A stretch of DNA of 64,000 nucleotides from an uncultured Candidatus Poseidoniales archaeon (GTDB lineage Archaea; Thermoplasmatota; Poseidoniia; Poseidoniales; CAYMED01): the NCBI GenBank assembly GCA_964389655.1, contig CAYMED010000008.1, positions 1-64,000 on the forward strand. The letters are read 5' to 3'. Below are positions 50,083 to 63,275 of this stretch, in pieces. The notes beneath the pieces were generated by a model. It was given only the letters and a program-made list of their open reading frames with translations. It ran no database searches and was not told the DNA's origin. The position numbers and the translations under genes are program-made. How positions within the stretch are numbered: position 1 is the stretch's first letter; every line of letters starts with the position of its first letter.

Positions 50083-53000
50083 ATGTATCTCTCGAACGTT
50101 GTTGTCGAGAATTTCAAGTCATTTCGCGGGACGACTATAATACCCTTTGAATGCGGATTTACTGCAATCACGGGTCCAAATGGATCGGGGAAATCGAATT
50201 GTGGCGATGCGATTCAGTTTGTACTGGGCCCACGTTCATCGAAAAGCCTCCGTGCAGGTAGTGTGAGTGACCTTATTTTCAATGGAGGAGGTACACACCG
50301 TCCAGCAACTCATTGCTCAGTCTCGCTTATTTTCGCTAATCCAGTGCTTGCAGATGGAAAGCGCCGCCTCCCGCTTGACCAAGATGAAATCAAGTTCACG
50401 CGATCAGTGAAAATAGGGCGCAAAGGTCAAGCAACATCATCGTACCATCTTGATGGCCGTGTTTCAAGCCTAGGTGAATTCCGCCGTCTTCTTGCCTCCT
50501 CTGGTATACGGGCAGATGGGTACAACATCGTTCTCCAAGGTGACGTAACTGCTTTGGCCAATATGGGAAGTGTTCCACGCCGTAGGGTCTTGGAAGAAAT
50601 TGCAGGAGTAACTGCCTATGACCAAGAGATCACAAAGGCCAACCGCCAAAAAAACAAGGCTGAAGCATCCATCACACACCTAGAACTTCTGCATCATGAC
50701 CAATGCCAGCGTCGAGATGACTTGAAATCAGAGAGAGAATTGGCCCTGAAGCACAAAAAATTGCATGATGATCTAGCAGATGCGCGCATCACACACCTCT
50801 GGGCACGCCACCGCGCCAAATTTGAAGAAATTGAATTAACACTTGAACAGGTTGAAATTCAGCGCCAGCGGTCAGAATTCGAGAAAGAATCAGTCGATCA
50901 GGGGCACAAGGATCGCCTGAAACTGGACGAGAATCTTGCTCAGATCGAGAGATCATTAGAGGAGATTTTGGGTCCAGACCACAAGACATTGACGTCTTCA
51001 ATTAACAATCTTCGTGTACGTATTGATCGTGCCAAAGATCGCATAGATGAAGCAGAAGAGGCATCCCTCAGGGATGTTGCGGAGATGGAACGATTAGAAA
51101 GTGACAAGGAAGGAATTGTGGAGGAAATTGCGGAAGTCCGCAATTCAGCAGATGAAGCCGAAGCAGCTGCCGTTAATGCAGCAGCTGCACTGAAAAAGGC
51201 CCTCGATGATGAGCAGTCGGCTAGGGATGCAGTGGATGCGGGCGATCGCCGAAGTCACGAACTTCTTCGCACCTTGGCTCAAGCCAATGAGGCGGTTGGC
51301 CTTGCAGAAGAAAATGTGGGAAAGGCTCGAGCAGAGTATGAGCGGGCTCAAGCGAGACTTGAATCAGTAGAGGCAGCCCTGGGTGAGGCAGAAGAGCGAC
51401 TGGAGGACTTACGGCTTGATGTTGACGATGTTAAACACCGCCTTGAAGAAATTGGGGGGGATACGCCAGCAGTTGACAAGAAGGCTCTCCTCTCCCGTCT
51501 CCAGCAGCTCCAAGAGGAAGATCGCTCTTTGTGTGCGCAAAGGGATGACCTTGATGCACGAGCGCGCAAAGCACGTCGGGATTTGGATGAATCTCAACGA
51601 GCAGCAACTAAACGCGGCGATGACCTTGGCGGCCAAAGCCCAGCAGTCCGCGCCATATTGCAATTAAGGGATGCAGGAGATGTGCGCGGAATCCACGGGA
51701 CCTTGGGTGAATTGGCGGCCCCTCGTGACCCCTTGCATGAAGAAGCCCTAGCTCTCGCTTTAGGTGGTAGACTCAACAGCATTGTAGTCGAAGATGATGA
51801 GGTTGCAGCATCTTGTATCAAGTGGTTACGCTCAGCTCGAATAGGGCGCGCTACGTTCCTCCCCCTATCGAAATTAAGCCCCCTCCGCGATGGTGGCCGC
51901 GCCCAATTAGTTTCAAGAAAAGATGGCGTTGTTGGATTCGCTTGGTCATTGCTCCATATCGAGGAGCGCTTTTCAGTGGCCCTCCGACATGCTGTTCGGG
52001 ACACACTTGTCGTCGAATCCACTTCAGTTGGCCGTACACACATGGGTGGCGTGCGTATGGTATCACTAGATGGTAGTGTCTTCGAACCAGGGGGTGCAAT
52101 GAGTGGGGGTAAGGGTCCTAAATCCCAGCGTGCCTCATTCGGTGGCGACGCGCGCCGTAAACACGCAGTAGACGAATTTCGCAGTGAAGTTACTCGCTTG
52201 GAAATGGCACTTGATGCCATTTCCTCTGCCGTTGATGAAAACCGTGCGTCTCAACGAAAAGTTCGAGGGGATATACAAACTGCCTCTGCAGCCGATCTAA
52301 ATGATGAAGTCCAAGAATTACGCATGCGTGCAGATTTACTGGAGAAGGACCGTCCCAAAGTCAATGCAGCAGTAGCCGCACGAAAATCTGAATTGGAGAA
52401 GGCAACGGCAGGTGTTGAGGCTGCTCTTGTATCTATTGATGAAGCAGAATTGGAAGTGGGGCAGTGCATTGAGGAACGTGAAGCCTCTTCTAAGGAAGTG
52501 CATGAACAGACACCGGAGCACCTTGCAACTCGCCTAAGGGCGGCCGAAGAGGCCCGTCTTGCTTCGCGTGAAGCGGGTGCGGAAGCAGATGCAGCGAAAC
52601 TCAATGCAGAGGGGCGGATCACCTTGCTTGAGTCCGCAAAGTCTGATATTCAACGTCGCATGGACCGGCTTATTTCTGATTCAGAAACGCGAGAAAAACT
52701 TGTTGCAGAAGAAAATAGCGAACGTTCTGAAGCAGCTTCTGAGTTGGAAGGATTAGAACGCCAACAATCTGAAATCTCGGAAGAAGCTGATGCTTTATCG
52801 GCCTCTCGCCTTGAAGCAGTTGAACGAAGAGCTAGAATTGAACAAAACATTCGTTCAGCAGAAGACCGAATGCGCCGGCATGATGAGAGTCGTATGGCCC
52901 TAGAGCAACGGATTTTAGCTCAGAGGTCGGAATTATCTGAACTTGATTCAGAAATAGAAGATGGGGAAATTGGTACGCCTCCTGCTGGTCTTGACCTTCC

Positions 53001-54003
53001 CTCAGTTGAATCGGCTAGGGACCGTGAGCGTCGATTATCTAGACAACTCGAACAACTTGGGCCGGTCAATATGCTGGCTATTGAGCAATATGAAAGCACT
53101 CTTGAGCGCCTAGCGGCATTTGAATCGGATCTCAAAATTCTAGCCCAAGAGCGCGATCACCTCGATGGGCTTACAGAACGCCTTGAGGATGAGAGGAAGG
53201 CGCGCTTGCAAGCGGTATTGGAGGCAATCGACAAGAATTTCCAAGAGATCTATCAGCGATTGGATTCGGGCGGAGAGGCCCACCTCGAACTTGAAAATCC
53301 AGATGATCCCTTCAACGCGGGCTTAGCCATGGTTGCAAGACCAGCAGGCAAAAGCAAAGTTACTCGTCTTGAATCGCTTAGCGGGGGTGAGAAATCAATG
53401 GTTGCTCTTGCCTTTGTCTTTGCCGTGCAGCAATTTGATCCATCTCCCTTTTATTATCTGGATGAAGTGGATCAGAATCTCGATGCTGCTAATGCACAGC
53501 GAATTGCTGAATTGTGTAGGGAAGTAAGTTCACACGCCCAATTCATTATGGTCAGCCTTCGGAAAGTGAGTTTACAGCTCGCAGACCATCACCTCGGAGT
53601 AACTCACCCAGGAGATGGGGTGAGTCAAATAATCACGGATCTCGACGCAGACCGCGCTGTTGAAATCGGCGAAGCAGCATTGAAAGAGCAAGTGGATGGT
53701 GCCAAGAGCCAACGCAGCAAGGTGATTGAGGGCTTGCCGGATCCAACTAATATGGAGCGGGTTCCAGAACCTCATGTAGTTCTTTCAATCCTTGAATCTG
53801 ATTCGGTCGGTCCGGACCAAATTCCTGAATCAATGAGTCACTTGGTCAAGCGTTCAGTAACAAACCCTGTTGATGATCCATCTATTGGAGGTCTTCTTTC
53901 TCGTGCAGTTGATGGTGTGGGGTCAGAGGAACCAGCAGGGGGAGAATTGATTGAAAAGGACGCTGCATCAGTTCCTAGTATCGATGGAGATGGTGCTCAA
54001 TGA
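50083..54003 (+). CDS. smc: Chromosome segregation protein Smc
   Basis: FKSF, GPNGSGKS, hinge (IGRATFLPL, GGAMSGG), LGPVNMLAIEQY, LSGGE, YYLDEVD. Confidence 0.98.
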   Translation: MYLSNVVVENFKSFRGTTIIPFECGFTAITGPNGSGKSNCGDAIQFVLGPRSSKSLRAGSVSDLIFNGGGTHRPATHCSVSLIFANPVLADGKRRLPLDQDEIKFTRSVKIGRKGQATSSYHLDGRVSSLGEFRRLLASSGIRADGYNIVLQGDVTALANMGSVPRRRVLEEIAGVTAYDQEITKANRQKNKAEASITHLELLHHDQCQRRDDLKSERELALKHKKLHDDLADARITHLWARHRAKFEEIELTLEQVEIQRQRSEFEKESVDQGHKDRLKLDENLAQIERSLEEILGPDHKTLTSSINNLRVRIDRAKDRIDEAEEASLRDVAEMERLESDKEGIVEEIAEVRNSADEAEAAAVNAAAALKKALDDEQSARDAVDAGDRRSHELLRTLAQANEAVGLAEENVGKARAEYERAQARLESVEAALGEAEERLEDLRLDVDDVKHRLEEIGGDTPAVDKKALLSRLQQLQEEDRSLCAQRDDLDARARKARRDLDESQRAATKRGDDLGGQSPAVRAILQLRDAGDVRGIHGTLGELAAPRDPLHEEALALALGGRLNSIVVEDDEVAASCIKWLRSARIGRATFLPLSKLSPLRDGGRAQLVSRKDGVVGFAWSLLHIEERFSVALRHAVRDTLVVESTSVGRTHMGGVRMVSLDGSVFEPGGAMSGGKGPKSQRASFGGDARRKHAVDEFRSEVTRLEMALDAISSAVDENRASQRKVRGDIQTASAADLNDEVQELRMRADLLEKDRPKVNAAVAARKSELEKATAGVEAALVSIDEAELEVGQCIEEREASSKEVHEQTPEHLATRLRAAEEARLASREAGAEADAAKLNAEGRITLLESAKSDIQRRMDRLISDSETREKLVAEENSERSEAASELEGLERQQSEISEEADALSASRLEAVERRARIEQNIRSAEDRMRRHDESRMALEQRILAQRSELSELDSEIEDGEIGTPPAGLDLPSVESARDRERRLSRQLEQLGPVNMLAIEQYESTLERLAAFESDLKILAQERDHLDGLTERLEDERKARLQAVLEAIDKNFQEIYQRLDSGGEAHLELENPDDPFNAGLAMVARPAGKSKVTRLESLSGGEKSMVALAFVFAVQQFDPSPFYYLDEVDQNLDAANAQRIAELCREVSSHAQFIMVSLRKVSLQLADHHLGVTHPGDGVSQIITDLDADRAVEIGEAALKEQVDGAKSQRSKVIEGLPDPTNMERVPEPHVVLSILESDSVGPDQIPESMSHLVKRSVTNPVDDPSIGGLLSRAVDGVGSEEPAGGELIEKDAASVPSIDGDGAQ

Positions 54004-54983
54004 GCCTTGCAGTATCTGGGGTGGATACCGCTCAATTACGCCTTGATGATACGGTCATTCAAAGTTTAATTCTCCAAAATGGACCCTCATTACGCCAGCG
54101 GGATCTTTTGGTTGAGGAGGCCCTTGAAGAGGGGCGGCACCATCTTGACCTTTCTGACCCATTTGATCGTTCTGTCGCTCTTGTCTTTGAATTAATTTCG
54201 ACGCATGACTTTGATCCTTGGGCTATCGACTTGCATCGCTTCATCGAATTATTTACCGAGCGTATTGAAACAACAGAAGGTCTTGATTTACCCGCCTGTG
54301 GGCGGTTATTACGCCTTGCATGGGGTGTGCTTGCTGGGCGCGCTGAAGAGTTACTCGGCCGTCAACAAATGATGGATGTTGAGGAAGATGACTATTGGGA
54401 TGGATCTGAGATTGATGGTTGGCAAAGTGACTTGGATGATGCATCTTTTGAATTCACAATGCGGATGGTCGATGGAACCGGCCATAATGCACTTGAGAGC
54501 TTACTTTCCCCTAGGCTACGGAGGGATGAGGGGCGACCAGTTACGTTGACTGAACTGCTTGCAGGCCTGTCTGATGGTCAAGATGATATGGCGATCCGGG
54601 CGGAACTCGAAGCGAATAGGAAAAGGCACGCTGCAAATCTTGAATTGGCTTTGTCAAATGTAAGTAATCGGGCGCACGATGAGAACTTGGAAGGTGATTT
54701 GGAACGCGTCTGGCAAAATTTGCAATCGTTAGATGGTGGTAAAGGGGTTTCCATGCCTGATTTGAGGAAGAAAATGGTTGATGTCGAGGGAGTAACTGAG
54801 GATTTGGATCGAAGGGAGGTCGAAGTTGCAACATTCATTGCGGTATTATTTCTCACGCGCCTCTCAATTGCAAAAATATCTCAGTCGGATGCAGGTGTTG
54901 TCCACATCCGTAATTTGTGGCCGGAGGCAAATAATTTTCATGAGGCTCAGGCACTTGGTGGACAGAAAGGGTTGGGGATATGA
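54000..54983 (+). CDS. scpA: Kleisin ScpA
   Basis: DPWAIDL, RPVTLTELL, VATFIAVLFL; ATGA overlap with smc. Confidence 0.85.
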   Translation: MSLAVSGVDTAQLRLDDTVIQSLILQNGPSLRQRDLLVEEALEEGRHHLDLSDPFDRSVALVFELISTHDFDPWAIDLHRFIELFTERIETTEGLDLPACGRLLRLAWGVLAGRAEELLGRQQMMDVEEDDYWDGSEIDGWQSDLDDASFEFTMRMVDGTGHNALESLLSPRLRRDEGRPVTLTELLAGLSDGQDDMAIRAELEANRKRHAANLELALSNVSNRAHDENLEGDLERVWQNLQSLDGGKGVSMPDLRKKMVDVEGVTEDLDRREVEVATFIAVLFLTRLSIAKISQSDAGVVHIRNLWPEANNFHEAQALGGQKGLGI

Positions 54984-55543
54984 TGGAAGGTGGACTTGAG
55001 CCGATGGTCGAGGCTCTGCTCTTTATTGCAGGTAAACCACTTACTGTGGGTGATCTTTGTGAACGCCTCAATGCGGGGACGGGTGATGTTGAAGCAGCTT
55101 TGCAATCTTTGCAGAAGCATCACAGGCGTCGAAAAATTGGGTCTCTAAGGGTGAATAAAGCGGGAAAGGGCTGGGTTCTTGAAGTTGCTACAGGTCTTTC
55201 GGAGCAATTGGAAAGTGTTGCGAGGGCTGAGATTCCAAAGCGCTTGCTTCCAACAGCGGCCCTGATTGCTTACCATCAACCAATATCACAATCTGATTTG
55301 GTCCAGATGATAGGGCAAAAAGCGTATGATCATGTCCATGACCTTTCATCATTTGGTCTCATCGATCGCCGGCGTGATGGGAATACGCGTCGTCTGACTA
55401 CAACGGCGAGGTTTGCTGAGTACTTTGGTTGCCCATCGGCGGATCGTAACGCCGTACGTGCTTGGTTCAGGGAGCGTGCTTCTGCCTTGGGCCTTGATGC
55501 TTCGGACCCCGCTATGGAAGGGGATCGTTCAGTTATTGTTTGA
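54980..55543 (+). CDS. scpB: Segregation and condensation protein ScpB
   Basis: VEALLF, ALIAYHQPISQ, TTARFAEYFG. Confidence 0.93.
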   Translation: MMEGGLEPMVEALLFIAGKPLTVGDLCERLNAGTGDVEAALQSLQKHHRRRKIGSLRVNKAGKGWVLEVATGLSEQLESVARAEIPKRLLPTAALIAYHQPISQSDLVQMIGQKAYDHVHDLSSFGLIDRRRDGNTRRLTTTARFAEYFGCPSADRNAVRAWFRERASALGLDASDPAMEGDRSVIV

Positions 55544-56845
55544 GCGAAGGTCCTTGATTGCAGCTTCAACAGATGCCATTGTGATTCTTGTTCCACTGGA
55601 TCGCAATTTGGAGGCTACTTCATCGACTTCACTGCCTTTGGCGCCAGCAGATGCGGCCATATTGCGCACATGGAGTTTCATGTGGCCTGCTTGGATGCCT
55701 ACTGTTGCTAAGGCGCGCAGTGCGCCAAGATTTTGAGCGAGTCCCGCGGCAGCCATTACGGCAGCCAATTCGTTGGCGCTTTCTGTTCCAAGTAAAGCAA
55801 CATTGGCTTTGGCACCAGGGTGGACGCGAATTGCTCCCCCTATTAGGCCAACTGCCATTGGCAATTCGATTGAACCAATCAGGTTGCCACTTGCATCTTT
55901 CTTCCACGTAGTTAGTGATGAGTATGTCCTATTGTGGGCAGCATATGAGTGGGCGCCTGATTCAATTGCTCTCCAATCTTGGCCACACGCGATTGCAATT
56001 GCTGAGATTGCGTTCATGATACCTTTGTTGTGGGTGGTTGCTCGAAACGGGTCTGCTGCGGCAAAATGGTATGCTTGAATGATGCCGTTGATCGTAGAGT
56101 CGCCATTTTGTTCCTTTCCCCCCATTTCTTCAGGGGTGAATATTGCAGATACTCTTGCCAGCCGGTGTATTGCTAGGTTGGAGATGATTCGGAGGATGAC
56201 GGTGCCGCCAGTGAGGTGTTCAATCGCTGGTGCAATGGACTCGGCCATTGTGTTTACTGCATTTGCTCCCATTGCATCCCTGCAATCAACGAGCAAATGG
56301 GCAATTACCATGGGTCCGGACAGTGTGTTCAATACTTTTGCTTCAATATCTCTGCACCCTCCGCCGAAACGAACTAGGATTGGATCAACTTCATTGCAAG
56401 CATCTATGAGCTCGTTTTTTGCCTCTAAAAGGCGCTTTTTAGCTAATTCTGGCTGATCGCAATCAACAACTTGTATCTGTCCAATCATGATTGGGTCTGT
56501 GTTGTCTGATGTGAACCCGCCTGAGGATAGGCATCGCTTTGCCATGTTTGAGGCAGCAGCCACGACAGATGGTTCCTCAAGAACGAATGGGATTAGGTAT
56601 GATTTTCCATCAACTACGAAGTTTGTTGCTACTCCGACGGGTAGTGACATGGTGCCCACGACATTCTCGATCATTCGGTTGGCATCTTCTTCAAGCAATT
56701 CCCCTGATGCGGACCATGCATCAGTATGGACTTTTTCTAATCCTGCGAGTTCGGCGGCAATCTGCCGGCGCTCGGATACAGTATGTCGAAAGAAACCCTT
56801 GATGCGGCTATCTTCTACTGGCATATACTTCGTGCGAGCCGCCAT
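55529..56845 (-). CDS. hmgA: Class II HMG-CoA reductase
   Basis: ENVVG, EEPSVVAA, DAMGAN, THNKGIMN, GQDWRA, GIQAGHMKLH. ATG56845 preferred (track start 56887 lies inside the repeat array). Confidence 0.95.
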   Translation of the reverse strand: MAARTKYMPVEDSRIKGFFRHTVSERRQIAAELAGLEKVHTDAWSASGELLEEDANRMIENVVGTMSLPVGVATNFVVDGKSYLIPFVLEEPSVVAAASNMAKRCLSSGGFTSDNTDPIMIGQIQVVDCDQPELAKKRLLEAKNELIDACNEVDPILVRFGGGCRDIEAKVLNTLSGPMVIAHLLVDCRDAMGANAVNTMAESIAPAIEHLTGGTVILRIISNLAIHRLARVSAIFTPEEMGGKEQNGDSTINGIIQAYHFAAADPFRATTHNKGIMNAISAIAIACGQDWRAIESGAHSYAAHNRTYSSLTTWKKDASGNLIGSIELPMAVGLIGGAIRVHPGAKANVALLGTESANELAAVMAAAGLAQNLGALRALATVGIQAGHMKLHVRNMAASAGAKGSEVDEVASKLRSSGTRITMASVEAAIKDLRSNNN

Positions 56846-56870
56846 CCCCCCTTCATCATTCGGACGCTTC

Positions 56871-57011
56871 AACGCGTTAATTAACACATCAACGCGTCAA
56901 CCAACGCGTTAACAAAACACCCCTACGCGTTAACAAAACCCCCCAAACGACAACCATAACGCGGCGTCGCACCACGAAGAACGCGTTGAAATGGCGCGTT
57001 CTGACGCGTCA
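56871..57011. repeat. Intergenic array of ACGCGT palindromic boxes
   Basis: Exact ACGCGT at 56872, 56892, 56904, 56925, 56981 and 57004; near copies at 56959 and 56994; 15-bp direct repeat ACGCGTTAACAAAAC at 56904 and 56925. Confidence 0.9.
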
Positions 57012-57036
57012 ATCAACCGAACCTTGAAGGAGTCTC

Positions 57037-58440
57037 TTGGTTGCCCAAGGCTCAATGTTGTCTAAGTGGAAATTTGATCTTCCAGCACTTCGATCGAATC
57101 CATTCTCACTTGCGCCACTTGAACCTGAGTCTCGTGATTTACTCGTTGGCAGGGGAGTTGAAGTTGAACGATTTTATGAATCGGTTCATTACAGTTCAGC
57201 TCGCCAAATTCTCCTTATCGGGGAATCAGGCAGTGGGCGCACATCGCTATTATCGGCAGTTGCGGGAATGGTGGATGCTCCAAAACGCTTCACGATGCTT
57301 CCTGAAGATGGTGATTTAGACCGATGCTTGGGTGAATTGTATTGTACATTGGTCTCGTTTGATTCCCCGCAAGGTGGCCGATCCTCAATCGTAGAGCACA
57401 TTGTCGCTTCTCTTGCACCTTCACCGAATGGGGAGATCCCTCTGATTATTCTTGATGATTCATCAATTGATGGGGGCATCCTCGCAGAACTTACCATGCG
57501 TCTATTACCTCTTTTTCGCCGCATGAAGGCAGTTGTAGTTATTTCCGTTACTCCTGCACAAATTGCATCTTGGTCCGATGATCTCGTCGAATCATTTGAT
57601 CTAATTGGGCCATTAAATCCGCTCGCAGAAGAGGAAGTAAAGGACTTGATCTGCTCGAGAATGAACAGAGCAGGTGCACACGGGTGGGTTCCTCCTCAGG
57701 GCTTAGTTGAGGAGATTCTTGACCAAACAGGAGGGCATCCTAGACGTATTGTTCGGCTAATGCGAGATGCGATAGACCATCAGAGAACTGGGCGTGATCG
57801 AACTTCTGCCCTTGCAGAACTCCATTTGCGAATGCAAAGCCAACTGGAAAATTCCTCCTCCCTTGATGAATTAGAATCTTCACCTTCTCCGCCAGTTCAT
57901 TCATTATCGCCTCTACCAATTCCCGTATCAAATGTGCAAACTCCAGAACCGATCCACACTCAAACTTTCCAAGAGGCACCAGGAGTTGAATGGTCAGCTT
58001 CTCCGGAGATATTGGGTCACTCTCCGTCTCCTCCCGGATTTGGTGGTTTGGCAGCGCGTAATAGGAATTTCTTGGACGCATCCAATGAATTTCCATCCCC
58101 ATCGGATCAACCAGTAACGCCACTTCCACTAGCTCCGGATCCAAGGATCGATCAAATTTCTCCAGAACCCGAACCATCTCTCTTAATAGACGATCTAAAG
58201 GGGATGGAAGTCACATTACTGATTGCAGCGGCAGGTCGCTCAATTTCTCCTTCGGACGAAAAATTGCAACTCGACTTTGGCATTGGACGTCCTCGTCTTT
58301 CACAGATTCTCAACGGTTTGCGAAAGCGCGGATATCTCAATGTTGAGATGCAAGGCCGCCATCGCATGTTCCGCACTCCCGTTTCTATTCACACATCGCT
58401 GATACATGCCGGTCACCTTGAGGAGGTGGAAAGTACATGA
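57037..58440 (+). CDS. Atypical AAA+/STAND-like P-loop ATPase with Pro-rich linker and C-terminal winged helix
   Basis: NPF..LVGR, Walker A GESGSGRTS, Walker B LIILDD, TGGHPR, wHTH IGRPRLSQILNGLRKRGYLNVEMQGRHRMF. Confidence 0.75.
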   Translation: MVAQGSMLSKWKFDLPALRSNPFSLAPLEPESRDLLVGRGVEVERFYESVHYSSARQILLIGESGSGRTSLLSAVAGMVDAPKRFTMLPEDGDLDRCLGELYCTLVSFDSPQGGRSSIVEHIVASLAPSPNGEIPLIILDDSSIDGGILAELTMRLLPLFRRMKAVVVISVTPAQIASWSDDLVESFDLIGPLNPLAEEEVKDLICSRMNRAGAHGWVPPQGLVEEILDQTGGHPRRIVRLMRDAIDHQRTGRDRTSALAELHLRMQSQLENSSSLDELESSPSPPVHSLSPLPIPVSNVQTPEPIHTQTFQEAPGVEWSASPEILGHSPSPPGFGGLAARNRNFLDASNEFPSPSDQPVTPLPLAPDPRIDQISPEPEPSLLIDDLKGMEVTLLIAAAGRSISPSDEKLQLDFGIGRPRLSQILNGLRKRGYLNVEMQGRHRMFRTPVSIHTSLIHAGHLEEVEST

Positions 58441-59480
58441 GCAGTGAAAATTCGTGGACTATTGCATGGTCTCATGAATTTGAGAACAATATTTCAGCAC
58501 TTGGAATTGATATGAACGGTGCCATCGTTCTAAGTGACGACAAAGTATACGCTTTTGACCCAAATGGTTCTCAGATTTGTTCGACAAGATTGCGTGCTTC
58601 GACTTATTCGGTTTCTATTTCAGAGGGAATCGTTGCAATTCTAAGTGGCCCAGATCTTTGGTTTCTCAGCCGCGAGAATCTAGATTCAGTATTTGAACCA
58701 AGGCGTGTTCCAGGTGGTTTTCATTCAGTGATCCCTAGAGTGGGGGGTGGATGGGTTGCTGCAGACCGTGGAGACCATATCCATCTTTTTTCTGAGCGTG
58801 GACGTGGATTAAGACGAATACGTAGTGGCGCAGTTCGCCGCCTCTTGGGTTGGTTTGATCGAGAGCATTTGTTATTGCAAGGCCTCGATGGGCGTCTTTC
58901 TTGTATTTGTGTTACTGGAAGAGGGCGTAAGCGCACAGTCGACGAACGCCCGTGGTCATATGCGAGTTTGTTGCATGATGGTGCTTGTTTAGTAGAGTCG
59001 ATTGATGGTGCTTTGCATATTGGAGTGCCGGATCCTTTTGGCTGGTCTCGTTTTGACCTTGCTTCACCCCCTGGTGTTCTAGAGCCATCCTCTTCCGCTC
59101 CCTGTGTCGACGGGTGGCTTGTTGTCGACCTTTCAGGTGAGGTTCATCTTGCTCCAATTACTGAAAATCCCTCCCCAATTGTTCAGAAAGCAGACCTCAT
59201 TGCCTCAGATGGGCAATATGCTGCAGGTGTTGGAAATCGATCTGGCTTATTCCGGTGGATCGATGCTCCTGTAGCAAGTCATCAACGTGGTATTGACTTG
59301 CGGAAGCGAGCAGCAGAAGCGCGAGAGAAATCAGATTGGGATCAAAGAGAAAGCCTCTTTGAAAAGGCCCGAGATGCGGAAGATGGGGGTGCAATTACCC
59401 GCGCGATTGAACTTTATCGGGCCTTAGGCCGAGATGAAGATGTACGCCGCTTACTTGCTGTGCAGGAGGAAGATCGATGA
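58437..59480 (+). CDS. Beta-propeller (WD40/PQQ-like) protein with C-terminal helical segment
   Basis: Repeated blades (KVYAFDPNG, HIHLFSERG, GLDGRLSC, SIDGALHI, DLSGEVHL); ATGA-coupled to both neighbours. Confidence 0.65.
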   Translation: MSSENSWTIAWSHEFENNISALGIDMNGAIVLSDDKVYAFDPNGSQICSTRLRASTYSVSISEGIVAILSGPDLWFLSRENLDSVFEPRRVPGGFHSVIPRVGGGWVAADRGDHIHLFSERGRGLRRIRSGAVRRLLGWFDREHLLLQGLDGRLSCICVTGRGRKRTVDERPWSYASLLHDGACLVESIDGALHIGVPDPFGWSRFDLASPPGVLEPSSSAPCVDGWLVVDLSGEVHLAPITENPSPIVQKADLIASDGQYAAGVGNRSGLFRWIDAPVASHQRGIDLRKRAAEAREKSDWDQRESLFEKARDAEDGGAITRAIELYRALGRDEDVRRLLAVQEEDR

Positions 59481-59776
59481 GTGATGATATGGTAATGGTA
59501 ACTCTTGAACGAATTGAGAAGGCACTTTCAATTACTGCTGAGGCTCGAAAATTGTTGTCTCCTCTTGTAACTGCAGATTCACATCTTGGAAAAATTCTGG
59601 CAGATATGCTTCGTATGGCCGATGATTACATCGCTGATGCATCTCATTTCAGAGATAAAGGAGATCTTGTGCGGGCGCACGCCGCTTCTTCTTATGCGCA
59701 TGCTTGGCTTGATGCCTCGGTGCGAATCGGTCTTGCTGATGGGCATGGCGATGATCGACTATTCACTCTACCATGA
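59477..59776 (+). CDS. DUF357 family protein
   Basis: MADDYIADASHFRDKGDLVRAHAASSYAHAWLDASVRIGL is the DUF357 signature. Confidence 0.85.
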   Translation: MSDDMVMVTLERIEKALSITAEARKLLSPLVTADSHLGKILADMLRMADDYIADASHFRDKGDLVRAHAASSYAHAWLDASVRIGLADGHGDDRLFTLP

Positions 59777-59883: not shown

Positions 59884-61053
59884 ATGCCCTCATATTTGGA
59901 TCGCATTGGAGCAGGTCTTGTGATTCGAGATCCAGTTCCATTGGGGTATGAATTTGTTCCTTCAGAACTTGTGGGCCGAGATCATCAACTTGAATCTCTT
60001 GCTTCACTATTTACGGGTATTGATCGACCAAACATAAGTTGTAGGGCTGCGATTACTGGTCCAGTTGGTTCAGGAAAGAGTGTTATTTCTCGCCGTTTTG
60101 GCCTCGACCTTGTCTCCCATCTTGCTTTAGTACGTCCAACCAAAGTTGTCCGAGTCAATTGCCGTAATCACCCGACAACGCCACAAGTAATGCAGCGTTT
60201 AATCACATCACTAGATGCCCGGCACCCTGAACGCGGGTTGGGTCGAGGCGAAATTCTGCAATCATTGCGTCGTCATTTGATCCAAGATAATCTTCATCTT
60301 CTCATAATCTTGGATGAGATCGATCATTTGTTGTCAAAGGAAGGGGATGATTTACTCTATCAGTTACTGCGGATTGATGAGGATCAAGACACCGCAGGTT
60401 CTGTTTCTCTTATCATCATCAGCCAAGAGCCAGTTCTTGAACGCCTTGATGCATCAGTGCTCTCTCGCTTTGGTCGGAGCCATCAACTTTCTCTTCAGGC
60501 ATATGACCGAGCATCTTTATTCCAAATTGTTGAACAACGCGCATCTTTGGCATTAGTTGATCATGCCTGTGATCCATCAATTATGCGATTGATTGCGGAG
60601 GCAGCTAGTGACATTGGGGATGCACGACTTGCCATTGAGATGCTTGATGAGGCCGCAAAAAGGGCAGAAAGAGCAGGACGTGATACAATTGAGCCCAAGG
60701 ACGTTCAGCGCGCTACATCTGTCCGGCCAACGCATGTTGAACCATTTGATTTTGACACGCTTCCCAAACACGCTAGCCTTGTTCTCCTTGCGGCCGCCCG
60801 TCGTTTGCGAAAAGAACCCGAAGTATCGAGTGGAGAAATTGAGCAATTATACCGTCTAGTGTGCGAGGAAGTCGAAGAATCAGCCCGTGGCCATACTACC
60901 GTATATTCACATCTAAAACGCCTTGAACAAGCAGGAATTTTGACAGCCCGTCAATCAACAATTGAAGGTGGTCGTGGTCGTACACAGTATTTTTCGATGC
61001 CCACGCTTTTACCCCAAGATCTCGTGGTCCGGCTTGAGAAAACGATCCGATAA
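59884..61053 (+). CDS. cdc6: Orc1/Cdc6 replication initiator
   Basis: VPSELVGRD, GPVGSGKS, VNCR, IILDEID, GDARLAI, C-terminal wH ending GGRGRT. Confidence 0.93.
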   Translation: MPSYLDRIGAGLVIRDPVPLGYEFVPSELVGRDHQLESLASLFTGIDRPNISCRAAITGPVGSGKSVISRRFGLDLVSHLALVRPTKVVRVNCRNHPTTPQVMQRLITSLDARHPERGLGRGEILQSLRRHLIQDNLHLLIILDEIDHLLSKEGDDLLYQLLRIDEDQDTAGSVSLIIISQEPVLERLDASVLSRFGRSHQLSLQAYDRASLFQIVEQRASLALVDHACDPSIMRLIAEAASDIGDARLAIEMLDEAAKRAERAGRDTIEPKDVQRATSVRPTHVEPFDFDTLPKHASLVLLAAARRLRKEPEVSSGEIEQLYRLVCEEVEESARGHTTVYSHLKRLEQAGILTARQSTIEGGRGRTQYFSMPTLLPQDLVVRLEKTIR

Positions 61054-61132
61054 TTCCCTTCAAGTTGATTCCCTACGTCCCGAAGTGCTGATATACGGTT
61101 GTCAGGTGGGCGACCTCGCAGGTCGTTGAATC

Positions 61133-61651
61133 ATGGCTAAGGGTGAGGAATCCGTATTCAAAGCGGTTGTCAATGATACAGACCCTGAAGCGAAAGGCAA
61201 ATCCTATTCTATAGAGATTAAGGGCCCGAATTACAGTCAATTTCTCGGAAAAAGAGTTGGCGATGTAGTTGATGGAATTTTTGTCGGTGAAGGCGATACG
61301 ACACTGGCCGGTTATAAGTTGGAGATCCGAGGGGGCAGTGACCTCACAGGTACGCCCATGAGAGGCGATATTACTGGAGGAAATCGAAAACAGGTGATGA
61401 CTGCTCCAACAACAGGCTTTGCAGGAAAGAAACGAGTGCATTACAAACAGAAAACTCTCAGACGTCGTAAGCACGATGTTGCTCTCGTGCGAATTTCCAA
61501 ACCCAAAGGGCTGCGTATGCGGCGTGTATTTCGAGGAAACACAATCACGACCGACATCATTCAAATTAATCTCAAGGTTGTAGAACGTGGAAGTAAGCCA
61601 CTTGGTGTGATCTTCAACAGCGAGGACGAGGAAGCCGGCGAGGACGCCTGA
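61133..61651 (+). CDS. rps6e: 30S ribosomal protein S6e
   Basis: FLGKRVGD, YKLEIRGGSDLTGTPMR, RGNTI..DIIQINLKV; upstream of aIF2-gamma. Confidence 0.93.
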   Translation: MAKGEESVFKAVVNDTDPEAKGKSYSIEIKGPNYSQFLGKRVGDVVDGIFVGEGDTTLAGYKLEIRGGSDLTGTPMRGDITGGNRKQVMTAPTTGFAGKKRVHYKQKTLRRRKHDVALVRISKPKGLRMRRVFRGNTITTDIIQINLKVVERGSKPLGVIFNSEDEEAGEDA

Positions 61652-61668
61652 GGTGCGGGGGTGCGCTT

Positions 61669-62901
61669 GTGGCTGTCATGCCAAGCCAGCCAGAAGTCAA
61701 CATCGGATTAGTTGGTCACGTAGACCATGGTAAGACTACTCTAACGCGTGCACTTTCTGGTGAGTGGACAGATACCCATTCTGAGGAGCGAAAGCGTGGC
61801 ATCTCAATTAAACTCGGTTACGCTGATACAGCATTCTATCGGACAAAGGATGGACGAACATACTCAAGTGGTCGTCACCCAGATGAAAAGGAAGATCAAT
61901 CCGAGGATTTGTTACGTGTTGTATCGTTTGTAGATTCGCCAGGTCATGAGACCCTCATGGCGATTATGATTACGGGCGCCTCAATAATGGATGGAGCATT
62001 GCTATTGGTCGCTGCAAATGAAACGTGCCCGCAACCTCAGACAATTGAGCATCTTATGGCGCTTGAAATTGCTGGAATTGACCGTCTTATTGTGGTTCAG
62101 AATAAAGTCGATGTCGTGAGCAAAGAACGGGCAATCGAAAACCAAGCCGAGATCAAAGAATTTCTAGCAGGTACAATTGCAGAAGATGCTCCCATCATTC
62201 CAGTTAGTGCCCATCATGATGTGAATCTAGATATTCTAATTGAGGCCATAGAAAAGGTGATTCCAACACCCGACCGGGATGCAGATGCCCCCGGAATCAT
62301 GCACATTGCGCGTTCATTCGATGTCAATCGGCCAGGAACCCGCCCTGCTGGGTTGAGGGGAGGAGTCATTGGAGGTAGCATTGTAATGGGATCCTTCCAT
62401 CTTGATGATTCAATCGAAATTGGCCCAGGGAGAAGAAATGCGAAAGCTGGAAAGTGGGAACCAATTGAAACTAAGATCTCAGGCCTAAAAGGTGGCGGTT
62501 TGGACCTTGACCATATGCAAGCAGGTGGGCTTTGTGGAATTTCCACGCCCTTGGATCCGATTGTAACAAAGGGTGATTCATTATCAGGACAAATCGTTGC
62601 AAAATCTGGCCATCTTCCTCCAATTCACGACTCGATTCGAATTCAGTTACATCTCCTCAAAACAATGCTCGACCCAGAAGGTGGATCATCCTCCAAGGTT
62701 GCTCCCCTTCAATCGAATGAGACATTAATGGTGAATGTCGCTACAGCAACCAGCGTTGGAGTGGTTAAAGAAACCAAATCTGGCAAGGCCACACTTCGCC
62801 TTCGTCTGCCAATATGTGCTGATGTTGGAGGAAGGGTTGCCCTTTCACGTCGAGTTGGTATGCGTTGGCGTCTGATTGGCTATGGCGTCATTATTGAGTG
62901 A
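61669..62901 (+). CDS. eif2g: Translation initiation factor aIF2 gamma subunit
   Basis: QPEVNIGLVGHVDHGKTT, RGISIKLGY, DSPGHE, QNKVD, RWRLIGYG. Confidence 0.98.
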   Translation: MAVMPSQPEVNIGLVGHVDHGKTTLTRALSGEWTDTHSEERKRGISIKLGYADTAFYRTKDGRTYSSGRHPDEKEDQSEDLLRVVSFVDSPGHETLMAIMITGASIMDGALLLVAANETCPQPQTIEHLMALEIAGIDRLIVVQNKVDVVSKERAIENQAEIKEFLAGTIAEDAPIIPVSAHHDVNLDILIEAIEKVIPTPDRDADAPGIMHIARSFDVNRPGTRPAGLRGGVIGGSIVMGSFHLDDSIEIGPGRRNAKAGKWEPIETKISGLKGGGLDLDHMQAGGLCGISTPLDPIVTKGDSLSGQIVAKSGHLPPIHDSIRIQLHLLKTMLDPEGGSSSKVAPLQSNETLMVNVATATSVGVVKETKSGKATLRLRLPICADVGGRVALSRRVGMRWRLIGYGVIIE

Positions 62902-63275
62902 TTCAGGTGGGCCGCACGGTCCTGATTGATGCATGCGGGTGGGTCGCGCTTGTTGATGCAGGGCTAAATCTCGATCTTGCTTTGAAAGAGATTGTTGGAA
63001 AAGCGGATCTTGTCGTAATCGACAAGGTGAAGAAGGAATTAGATCATATTGGAAAGCACCGAAATAATTTACTCCTTGACCTATTGTATTCTAAATCTCG
63101 AACGGTTTCAGCGCATGATGGTGGGCACACAGATGATCATTTGCTTGAATTATCTAACAAATTGGATGCACCTGTATTGACAGTCGACAAGATGCTTAAG
63201 CGGCGGCTCATGAAAAGAGGCTGTTCCGTGATTGAAATTGTGCGTGGGAAGTATTTGCGATTGCTTGAGCCTTAA
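62898..63275 (+). CDS. PIN-domain protein (Fcf1/Utp24-like)
   Basis: VLIDAC, KKEL, HTDDHLL, VLTVDK acidic PIN residues; conserved position after eif2g. Confidence 0.85.
   Translation: MIQVGRTVLIDACGWVALVDAGLNLDLALKEIVGKADLVVIDKVKKELDHIGKHRNNLLLDLLYSKSRTVSAHDGGHTDDHLLELSNKLDAPVLTVDKMLKRRLMKRGCSVIEIVRGKYLRLLEP

Follow-up and report, generated by a model that had tools for sequence, protein, structure and literature searches.

What does a dense group of short palindromes do in an intergenic region of an archaeal chromosome, with hmgA and a divergent ATPase gene as immediate neighbours, smc-scpAB on one side and a cdc6 homologue on the other? The host genome (G000) falls into a third, small family of the Poseidoniales (Marine Group II archaea), uncultured organisms that abound in surface ocean waters. 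In a literature search that covered few subscription journals, no paper was found on the array or on Poseidoniales origins, replication or chromosome segregation. The window, which is the whole stretch of DNA analysed, is 64,000 nucleotides long. The original prediction for this locus considered a non-ORB replication origin, a centromere-like or SMC-loading site, an operator, and a group of methylation sites.

The box array and its conserved half-site

Six exact copies of ACGCGT are located within 141 bp, at 56872, 56892, 56904, 56925, 56981, and 57004, and two copies with one mismatch at 56959 and 56994. These positions agree with the original prediction (six exact and two mismatched boxes in ~140 bp), and its 8-bp and 10-bp box extensions, its 15-bp repeat at 21-bp spacing (56904 and 56925), and its A/C bias of the spacers (77 of 105 spacer bases are A or C on the + strand) have also been borne out. 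Its list of spacings left out gaps of 34 and 22 bp, and a degenerate ninth box at 56881–56892 was overlooked. It expected a given 6-mer about once per 4 kb; ACGCGT is in fact rarer, at once per 10.3 kb (203 copies in 2.1 Mb). Every other 1-kb stretch of the genome contains at most two copies, which makes the array the sole cluster, and a Poisson estimate by hand for six copies in 141 bp gives ~1e-14 per stretch of that size. Other hexamer clusters of like density in the genome scan resemble low-complexity coding repeats. The genome count, the absence of a rival kilobase, and the low-complexity, coding look of the other dense hexamers therefore show that the ACGCGT cluster is real. The array region is 51% GC and not AT-rich, and its inner gap is 57% GC.

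In all 30 loci compared, which come from three families, the hmgA and AAA+-wHTH genes are divergent and 230–390 bp apart. Comparing these orthologous intergenic regions by motif search, as the original prediction had suggested, shows that the array is kept in all of them. ACGCGT itself is present in only 19 of the 30, while GCGTTAA is found in every region and is ~100-fold enriched over the flanks. The conserved unit is the 9-bp half-site AHGCGTTAA, with ~7.8 copies (about eight) per intergenic region throughout the 30 loci. A half-site matrix built without the host genome gives ten matches in 150 bp of the host array against at most four elsewhere in that genome. In the host family, two half-sites usually overlap to give a 12-bp palindrome, which accounts for the palindromic ACGCGT boxes first noticed. 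The CGCG core and the A/C-rich spacers are traits of the host lineage, whereas the half-site is the order-wide unit. ACGCGT is also the yeast MCB cell-cycle box (56872–57009 in the window), a match that is probably a coincidence because the ACGCGT core is not conserved across the order.

The half-sites are regularly phased. Spacings between half-sites of the same direction peak at 11, 22, 32, and 42 bp, and the box centres of 34 loci fall on a single 10.75–11-bp lattice when measured from the AAA+-wHTH start (R = 0.71–0.72). The same centres measured from the hmgA start give R = 0.20, compared with 0.71 at 11 bp, and none of 5000 locus shifts reaches the observed R. Related genomes are not independent samples. 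With one locus per genus, R is 0.58 from the AAA+-wHTH start and 0.30 from the hmgA start.

The nine boxes of the host, both mismatch copies included, are at most 2 bp off this lattice. Relative to the ATG at 57055, Box 1 (56869–56880), a near-perfect 12-bp palindrome, is centred at −180; Box 2 (56881–56892), the degenerate box, at −168, with a half-site of 9.3 bits on the minus strand; Box 3 (56889–56900) at −160; Box 4 (56901–56912) at −148; Box 5 (56922–56933) at −127; Box 6 (56956–56967) at −93; Box 7 (56978–56989) at −71; Box 8 (56991–57002) at about −58; and Box 9 (57001–57012) at −48, immediately upstream of a putative BRE. Boxes 5 and 7 are assigned to the plus strand and Box 2 to the minus strand, while the others carry no strand. 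Boxes 6 and 8 are the one-mismatch copies, which score under the threshold and lie on the lattice; Box 8 was placed by direct reading. The positions near −147 and −70, occupied by Boxes 4 and 7 in the host, recur in all three families. In one family the final box, at −36 to −38, coincides with the expected BRE; in the host family its position is −48.

The pattern is confined to this locus. In 41 genomes, the exact 11-bp tandem pattern has 50 matches, 49 of them within the array; outside the order it gives scattered single matches, no more than a reversed control, and the hmgA upstream regions of four outgroups contain no boxes. A wider regulon was also looked for. Strong half-sites outside the array are no denser between genes than inside them, and none is shared with orthologues in partial samples (40–50%) of two genomes.

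On one side of the array, hmgA (HMG-CoA reductase; 55529–56845, minus strand) starts at 56845 or 56824, and its promoter probably overlaps Boxes 1 and 2 in the host genome. On the other side is the Poseidoniales-specific AAA+-wHTH pseudo-ATPase gene (57055–58440, plus strand), which encodes the candidate binder. Its putative BRE and weak TATA have been placed at 57017–57029 (plus strand) from their position and the aligned upstream regions. A purine-rich, Shine-Dalgarno-like stretch at 57026–57039 precedes a TTG at 57037, a possible alternative start, which makes the beginning of the gene in the host uncertain. In the assemblies of two relatives (L152 in G026 and L161 in G022), the gene appears to be in two pieces or to have an internal stop.

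Downstream, a propeller-like gene (58437–59480, plus strand) overlaps the ATPase stop, and a DUF357 gene (59477–59776, plus strand) is the last of the putative operon. The propeller has been rejected as an obligatory partner, since a search with the host gene product found no match in five streamlined relatives whose array is retained. The putative operon is followed by a divergent Orc1/Cdc6 paralogue, not of the Orc1-1 type (59884–61053, plus strand), whose distance and orientation to the array vary. The paralogue moves together with the S6e, eIF2-gamma, and PIN genes (59884–63275) as a unit, and in 11 of 15 related loci this unit has the opposite orientation relative to the array. Beyond hmgA, and convergent on it, is smc-scpA-scpB (50083–55543, plus strand).

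The candidate binder and its proposed mode of action

The protein encoded at 57055 (or 57037) is the best candidate for binding the boxes, in line with the original prediction. It has been detected by profile in 36 of 36 Poseidoniales, at one locus each (sometimes in two pieces), while 165 other Thermoplasmatota, including two Marine Group III genomes, gave nothing bar one weak match of 66 positions. A related-locus search with this protein alone returned only an unrelated weak match. Array and protein are co-distributed.

In the predicted model (pLDDT 79), an AAA+ domain (residues ~1–250) is joined by a disordered linker to a wHTH (residues 383–451), an AAA+ plus C-terminal winged helix build that is a trait of the Orc1/Cdc6 family. 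Across the order, the protein is 460–840 aa long, with a linker of 100–400 aa. The best structural matches of the model are Cdc6/Orc1 (Z 15.4–15.8, rmsd ~12, ~305 aligned, residues 9–458), and MuB and TnsC tie with them for the AAA+ domain (Z ~15, rmsd 3.8, ~218 aligned). The Orc1/Cdc6 family profiles TIGR02928, Cdc6_lid, and Cdc6_C do not match the protein, and its only profile matches, to AAA_16, AAA_22, and nSTAND1, are sub-threshold. The Walker motifs depart from those of Orc1/Cdc6: the Walker A Lys is replaced by Arg in 29 of 30 orthologues and the Walker B Glu is absent in all 30. With both residues lost, ATP hydrolysis is unlikely. The wHTH is the most conserved domain (0.64 compared with 0.51 for the AAA+ domain), with a near-invariant recognition helix and invariant SPSD and R-x-R-x-SQ motifs, and on its own it has no significant sequence match among solved structures. 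The linker contains one short conserved motif (residues 319–340; 58009–58074 in the window), with invariant Leu and Arg, which looks like a partner-binding motif.

Three AAA+ domains are predicted to form an open head-to-tail trimer (ipSAE 0.57, compared with 0.00 for the best control), with runs that agree in at least 95% of contacts and a pLDDT of at least 83. The ipSAE mark was calibrated on solved homo-pairs, of which 20 of 30 pass, and single chains, of which 1 of 23 passes, and these counts are only roughly valid here. The predicted interfaces hold the invariant residues N15, P21, D134, R237, and D241 and the near-invariant R50. Conservation is somewhat higher for polar interface residues than for others (p = 0.026), but not for the interface taken together (0.51 vs. 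0.50). The oligomer prediction may stem from model memory of MuB, TnsC, or ORC structures. MuB and TnsC rank with the best rigid matches to the AAA+ domain, for which a head-to-tail polymer is predicted here; they are, however, active transposon ATPases, whereas the AAA+-wHTH protein is the product of a core single-copy gene, has a wHTH, and has no catalytic Glu.

The AAA+-wHTH protein is probably the cognate binder of the boxes. From this we infer the following scheme, which extends from DNA binding and promoter position to the sign and purpose of regulation. One wHTH would occupy each 9-bp half-site, with overlapping half-sites giving the 12-bp palindrome, and the catalytically degenerate AAA+ domains would join head-to-tail. 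As a result of this joining, ~8–9 sites one helical turn apart would be filled cooperatively on one face of the DNA over ~150 bp. The final sites would adjoin or overlap the BRE of the gene that encodes the protein, leading to feedback on the level of the protein, and the far end of the array may also tune the divergent hmgA promoter. The array would then be both the phased docking platform of the AAA+-linker-wHTH protein and its operator, with a mainly transcriptional role overall, a reading to which we give about an even chance.

This keeps two parts of the original prediction, the operator and the site array for a sequence-specific binding protein, and agrees with the uniqueness of the array and its conservation in orthologous regions. 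As in autoregulatory arrays, the sites are at fixed positions over the candidate regulator's own putative promoter. On the other hand, it is hard to explain why a plain regulator with only its own promoter and hmgA as targets should be a conserved protein of 460–840 aa, and the long flexible linker fits poorly with an AAA+ polymer that sets the 11-bp spacing. Also, the nearby Cdc6 paralogue is likewise order-wide and was not found in the two Marine Group III genomes searched, and is a possible alternative binder.

The closest parallels in layout are plasmid partition centromeres: in R1 parC, the par promoter is flanked by two groups of five 11-bp repeats (PMC2241845), and in both R1 parC and tubC a split repeat array serves to repress the operon and to build the segregation complex (PMC2241845, PMC6009700). 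R1 parC/ParR (type II) and tubC/TubR (type III) have, like the array, one site per replicon and split repeats at the binder's promoter; their cooperative, autoregulating binding is proposed for the array. Unlike them, the array is chromosomal and has sites in both orientations, and its candidate binder is a large AAA+-linker-wHTH fusion. The array operon has no ParM, TubZ, or ParA motor, and a segregation role would be hypothetical here.

Segregation, replication, and other readings

The array could alternatively be a centromere-like or chromosome-organising site. The Poseidoniales would then have a single such site, at which a polymer of the dead Orc-like protein loads or stalls SMC-ScpAB, via the linker motif, or anchors the chromosome for segregation. 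The protein-DNA filament would be the segregation handle or the SMC-ScpAB loading or stalling site, the conserved motif of the disordered linker would recruit a partner, and autoregulation would be a side function. We regard this reading as unlikely and keep it alive because no regulon has been found, and a large conserved protein that controls only itself would be odd. The single site per chromosome fits it, as do the invariant Leu and Arg of the linker motif, the grouping of the 11-bp-spaced sites into two clusters at the promoter of the candidate binder, which resembles R1 parC (PMC2241845), and the likeness to the split tubC sites (PMC6009700). The array is a split, phased, single array at the promoter of its candidate binder, as in type II and type III centromeres, but no cytoskeletal motor is linked to it and no active motor is encoded beside it. 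The adjacency of smc-scpAB in 14 of 15 related loci also points in this direction; however, panE and nadB are nearly as tightly linked (13–14 of 15), so that the smc linkage is perhaps ordinary synteny and is weakened as specific evidence. In one genome (G018), the array is kept while smc is on another contig.

The parS/SMC idea of the original prediction has survived in part. A ParB-type parS has been rejected, without ParB above the cut-off and without origin proximity, while another centromere-like or SMC role stands as the rival just described. In five genomes, 91–98% complete, no ParB (PF02195) was found above the cut-off; G000 gave one weak 22-bit match, and the control search worked. 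In three genomes, the array is 24–27% of the chromosome away from the ORB origin described below; it is therefore not a classic parS, and this distance counts against a centromere in general. The bacterial parS/ParB-SMC-ScpAB system shares palindromic sites with the array, and smc-scpAB is nearby here, but the array is a single locus, separated from the origin by a quarter of the chromosome. The absence of ParB above the cut-off is compatible with a ParB-independent centromere, and ParB is apparently not the SMC loader in Thermococcus (PMC11840125). Sulfolobus SegAB (PMC12284271) resembles the array in being on an archaeal chromosome, with a cluster of palindromic sites upstream of the gene that encodes the binder. 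In contrast to what is found here, SegB is of the ribbon-helix-helix type, is partnered by a ParA protein, and has tens of chromosomal sites and an unrelated motif.

Two MamK/BeeR-like actin genes have been observed in the host, at L114:6006–8253 (G000:C4:20006–22256) and G000:C15:58162–59151. One actin-like gene is 3 kb from the ORB pair and is followed by a coiled-coil gene. Actin-like genes are present in 28 of 41 genomes. The search detected none in the streamlined genera, which lack the propeller-like gene as well, and the two absences are probably one shared loss. The actin-like genes are unlinked to the array and went undetected in 13 of the 20 genomes from one family, and in these 13 relatives the array is intact wherever seen. 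This argues against the centromere reading, and actin as an obligatory motor has been rejected, since the streamlined genera keep the array.

By the original prediction, an ORB-type origin elsewhere would refute the array as an origin, and a likely origin of this kind has been located, so the reading as a non-ORB main origin fails. The Methanomassiliicoccales ORBs of PMC4153887 served as the search set for a weight-matrix scan. Matches in the host genome were found on contigs C1, C4, C24, and C2, with inverted pairs on C4 (23996–24170, or L114:9996–10170) and C24, and the predicted absence of ORBs from the array and from upstream of the window's cdc6 holds. The inverted pair, 125–165 bp apart, is near GGGP synthase and reductase genes (C4; L078, L132, L133), and in three relatives (G003, G022, and G026) it occupies the same gene junction, with the same beta-CASP gene as neighbour. 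The spacer of the C4 pair is 17% GC, whereas the array lacks an AT-rich unwinding element. A single-ORB pattern is found in 33 of 41 genomes, with controls near zero, and a strict ORB-pair pattern in only 5 of 41 because the pattern is too narrow. The C4-type ORB pair is likely the true oriC of the Poseidoniales, unlinked from both cdc6 genes.

The strand skew leads to the same rejection of the array as main origin. At the C4 pair, the codon-corrected GC skew changes from +0.18 to −0.10 and the TA skew from −0.05 to +0.07, whereas the TA skew is positive on both sides of the array (+0.152 left, +0.094 right) and the GC shift is within error. The skew check proposed in the original prediction thus reveals no turn at the array. 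The GC polarity at the C4 pair is opposite to the usual bacterial one. In G003, the array is inside a long stretch with positive TA skew and a gene bias to the plus strand that extends from near the ORB pair to ~1 Mb on; in G026, the gene orientation agrees, while the skew windows are noisy, with a sign change near the array among them. In G003, G022, and G026, 403–491 kb separate the array from the ORB pair (24–27% of the genome).

The initiator gene is also elsewhere. The window's cdc6 matches Orc1-1 structures with 93–108 bits and the copy on C1 with 302–307 bits, placing the Orc1-1-type initiator gene on C1 and not beside the array. C1 also has a perfect or near-perfect single ORB (G000:C1:83849–83870), inside a long ORF and 5 kb from the Orc1-1-type gene, with no skew turn, and single near-perfect ORB motifs occur away from the pair in G003 (C1:305933 and 1824164). 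These lone ORBs are possibly initiator-titration sites. Contig C24 (L115) duplicates the C4 origin region and C22 genes. Of its 20 ORFs, 14 are second copies of genes found elsewhere in the assembly, and the contig is the compositional (tetranucleotide) outlier; it is therefore probably a contaminant from another Poseidoniales. C4 is native, since its actin-like protein is closest to that of a congeneric genome (77% identical, compared with 62–69% to others).

A dormant origin could escape the skew analysis, which leaves a small probability that the array is a secondary or dormant origin or an initiator-titration site, read by the Orc-like neighbour or the Cdc6 paralogue; we consider this improbable. 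The array shares with an archaeal ORB oriC and its Orc1/Cdc6 the intergenic repeats near a cdc6 homologue (3–8 kb away in 15 of 15 loci) and a neighbour of AAA+ plus wHTH build whose best structural matches include Cdc6/Orc1, and its 11-bp arrays of opposite orientation are reminiscent of arrays of low-affinity DnaA sites. The differences are the absence of ORBs, of an AT-rich spacer, and of a skew turn, the conserved ORB pair and Orc1-1-type gene found elsewhere, and the missing catalytic Glu of the neighbour.

An operator for another protein is similarly improbable. Here, the Cdc6 paralogue would act over the ATPase operon and hmgA in the manner of Sulfolobus Orc1-2, a non-initiator that binds promoter motifs (PMC6061795). 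The Walker motifs of the paralogue are intact, its helix is conserved across the order, and it was not found in two Marine Group III genomes. However, no boxes are located upstream of its gene, it changes place and orientation along with the S6e-eIF2gamma block and not with the array, and the lattice tracks the ATPase gene. Orc1-2 is an Orc-like AAA+-wHTH protein that binds promoter motifs including that of its own gene (PMC6061795), but it has many targets in a large regulon and an unrelated hexamer as motif, whereas the array is single. The AAA+-wHTH protein differs from Orc1-2 as well, in failing the Orc1/Cdc6 models, in its degenerate Walker motifs, in its 100–400-aa linker, and in its one putative target locus.

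It is highly improbable that the array is a structured RNA, a DNA cruciform, or a methylation-target cluster: the host region folds far better than shuffles (z −4.6) because the boxes are palindromes, but z ranges from +0.6 to −3.1 in 25 relatives, two well-aligned groups show no compensatory changes and differ in their consensus pairings, and Rfam has no match, while the CGCG of the box cores, proposed as methylation sites in the original prediction, is missing from most orthologous boxes and is not avoided genome-wide (observed/expected 0.93). A structured RNA has been rejected on these grounds, and the boxes lack the fixed recognition sequence of a restriction-modification cluster. AGCT, on the other hand, is strongly avoided genome-wide (observed/expected 0.48, with every other 4-bp palindrome at 0.8 or above), which suggests a restriction-modification target.

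The array is thus neither the main origin nor a ParB parS, it belongs to none of the families tested, and it most likely works like a parC-type autoregulatory operator.

Significance for the Poseidoniales

The array and its neighbour make up a two-part system that is testable in vitro with an 80-aa domain and 150 bp of DNA. As a by-product, the likely true origin of the order has been located. If the array is structural, it bears on the positioning of archaeal SMC, which would be ParB-independent. If it is regulatory, an Orc-like protein would have been turned into a single-locus switch beside the gene for the key enzyme of archaeal lipid synthesis.
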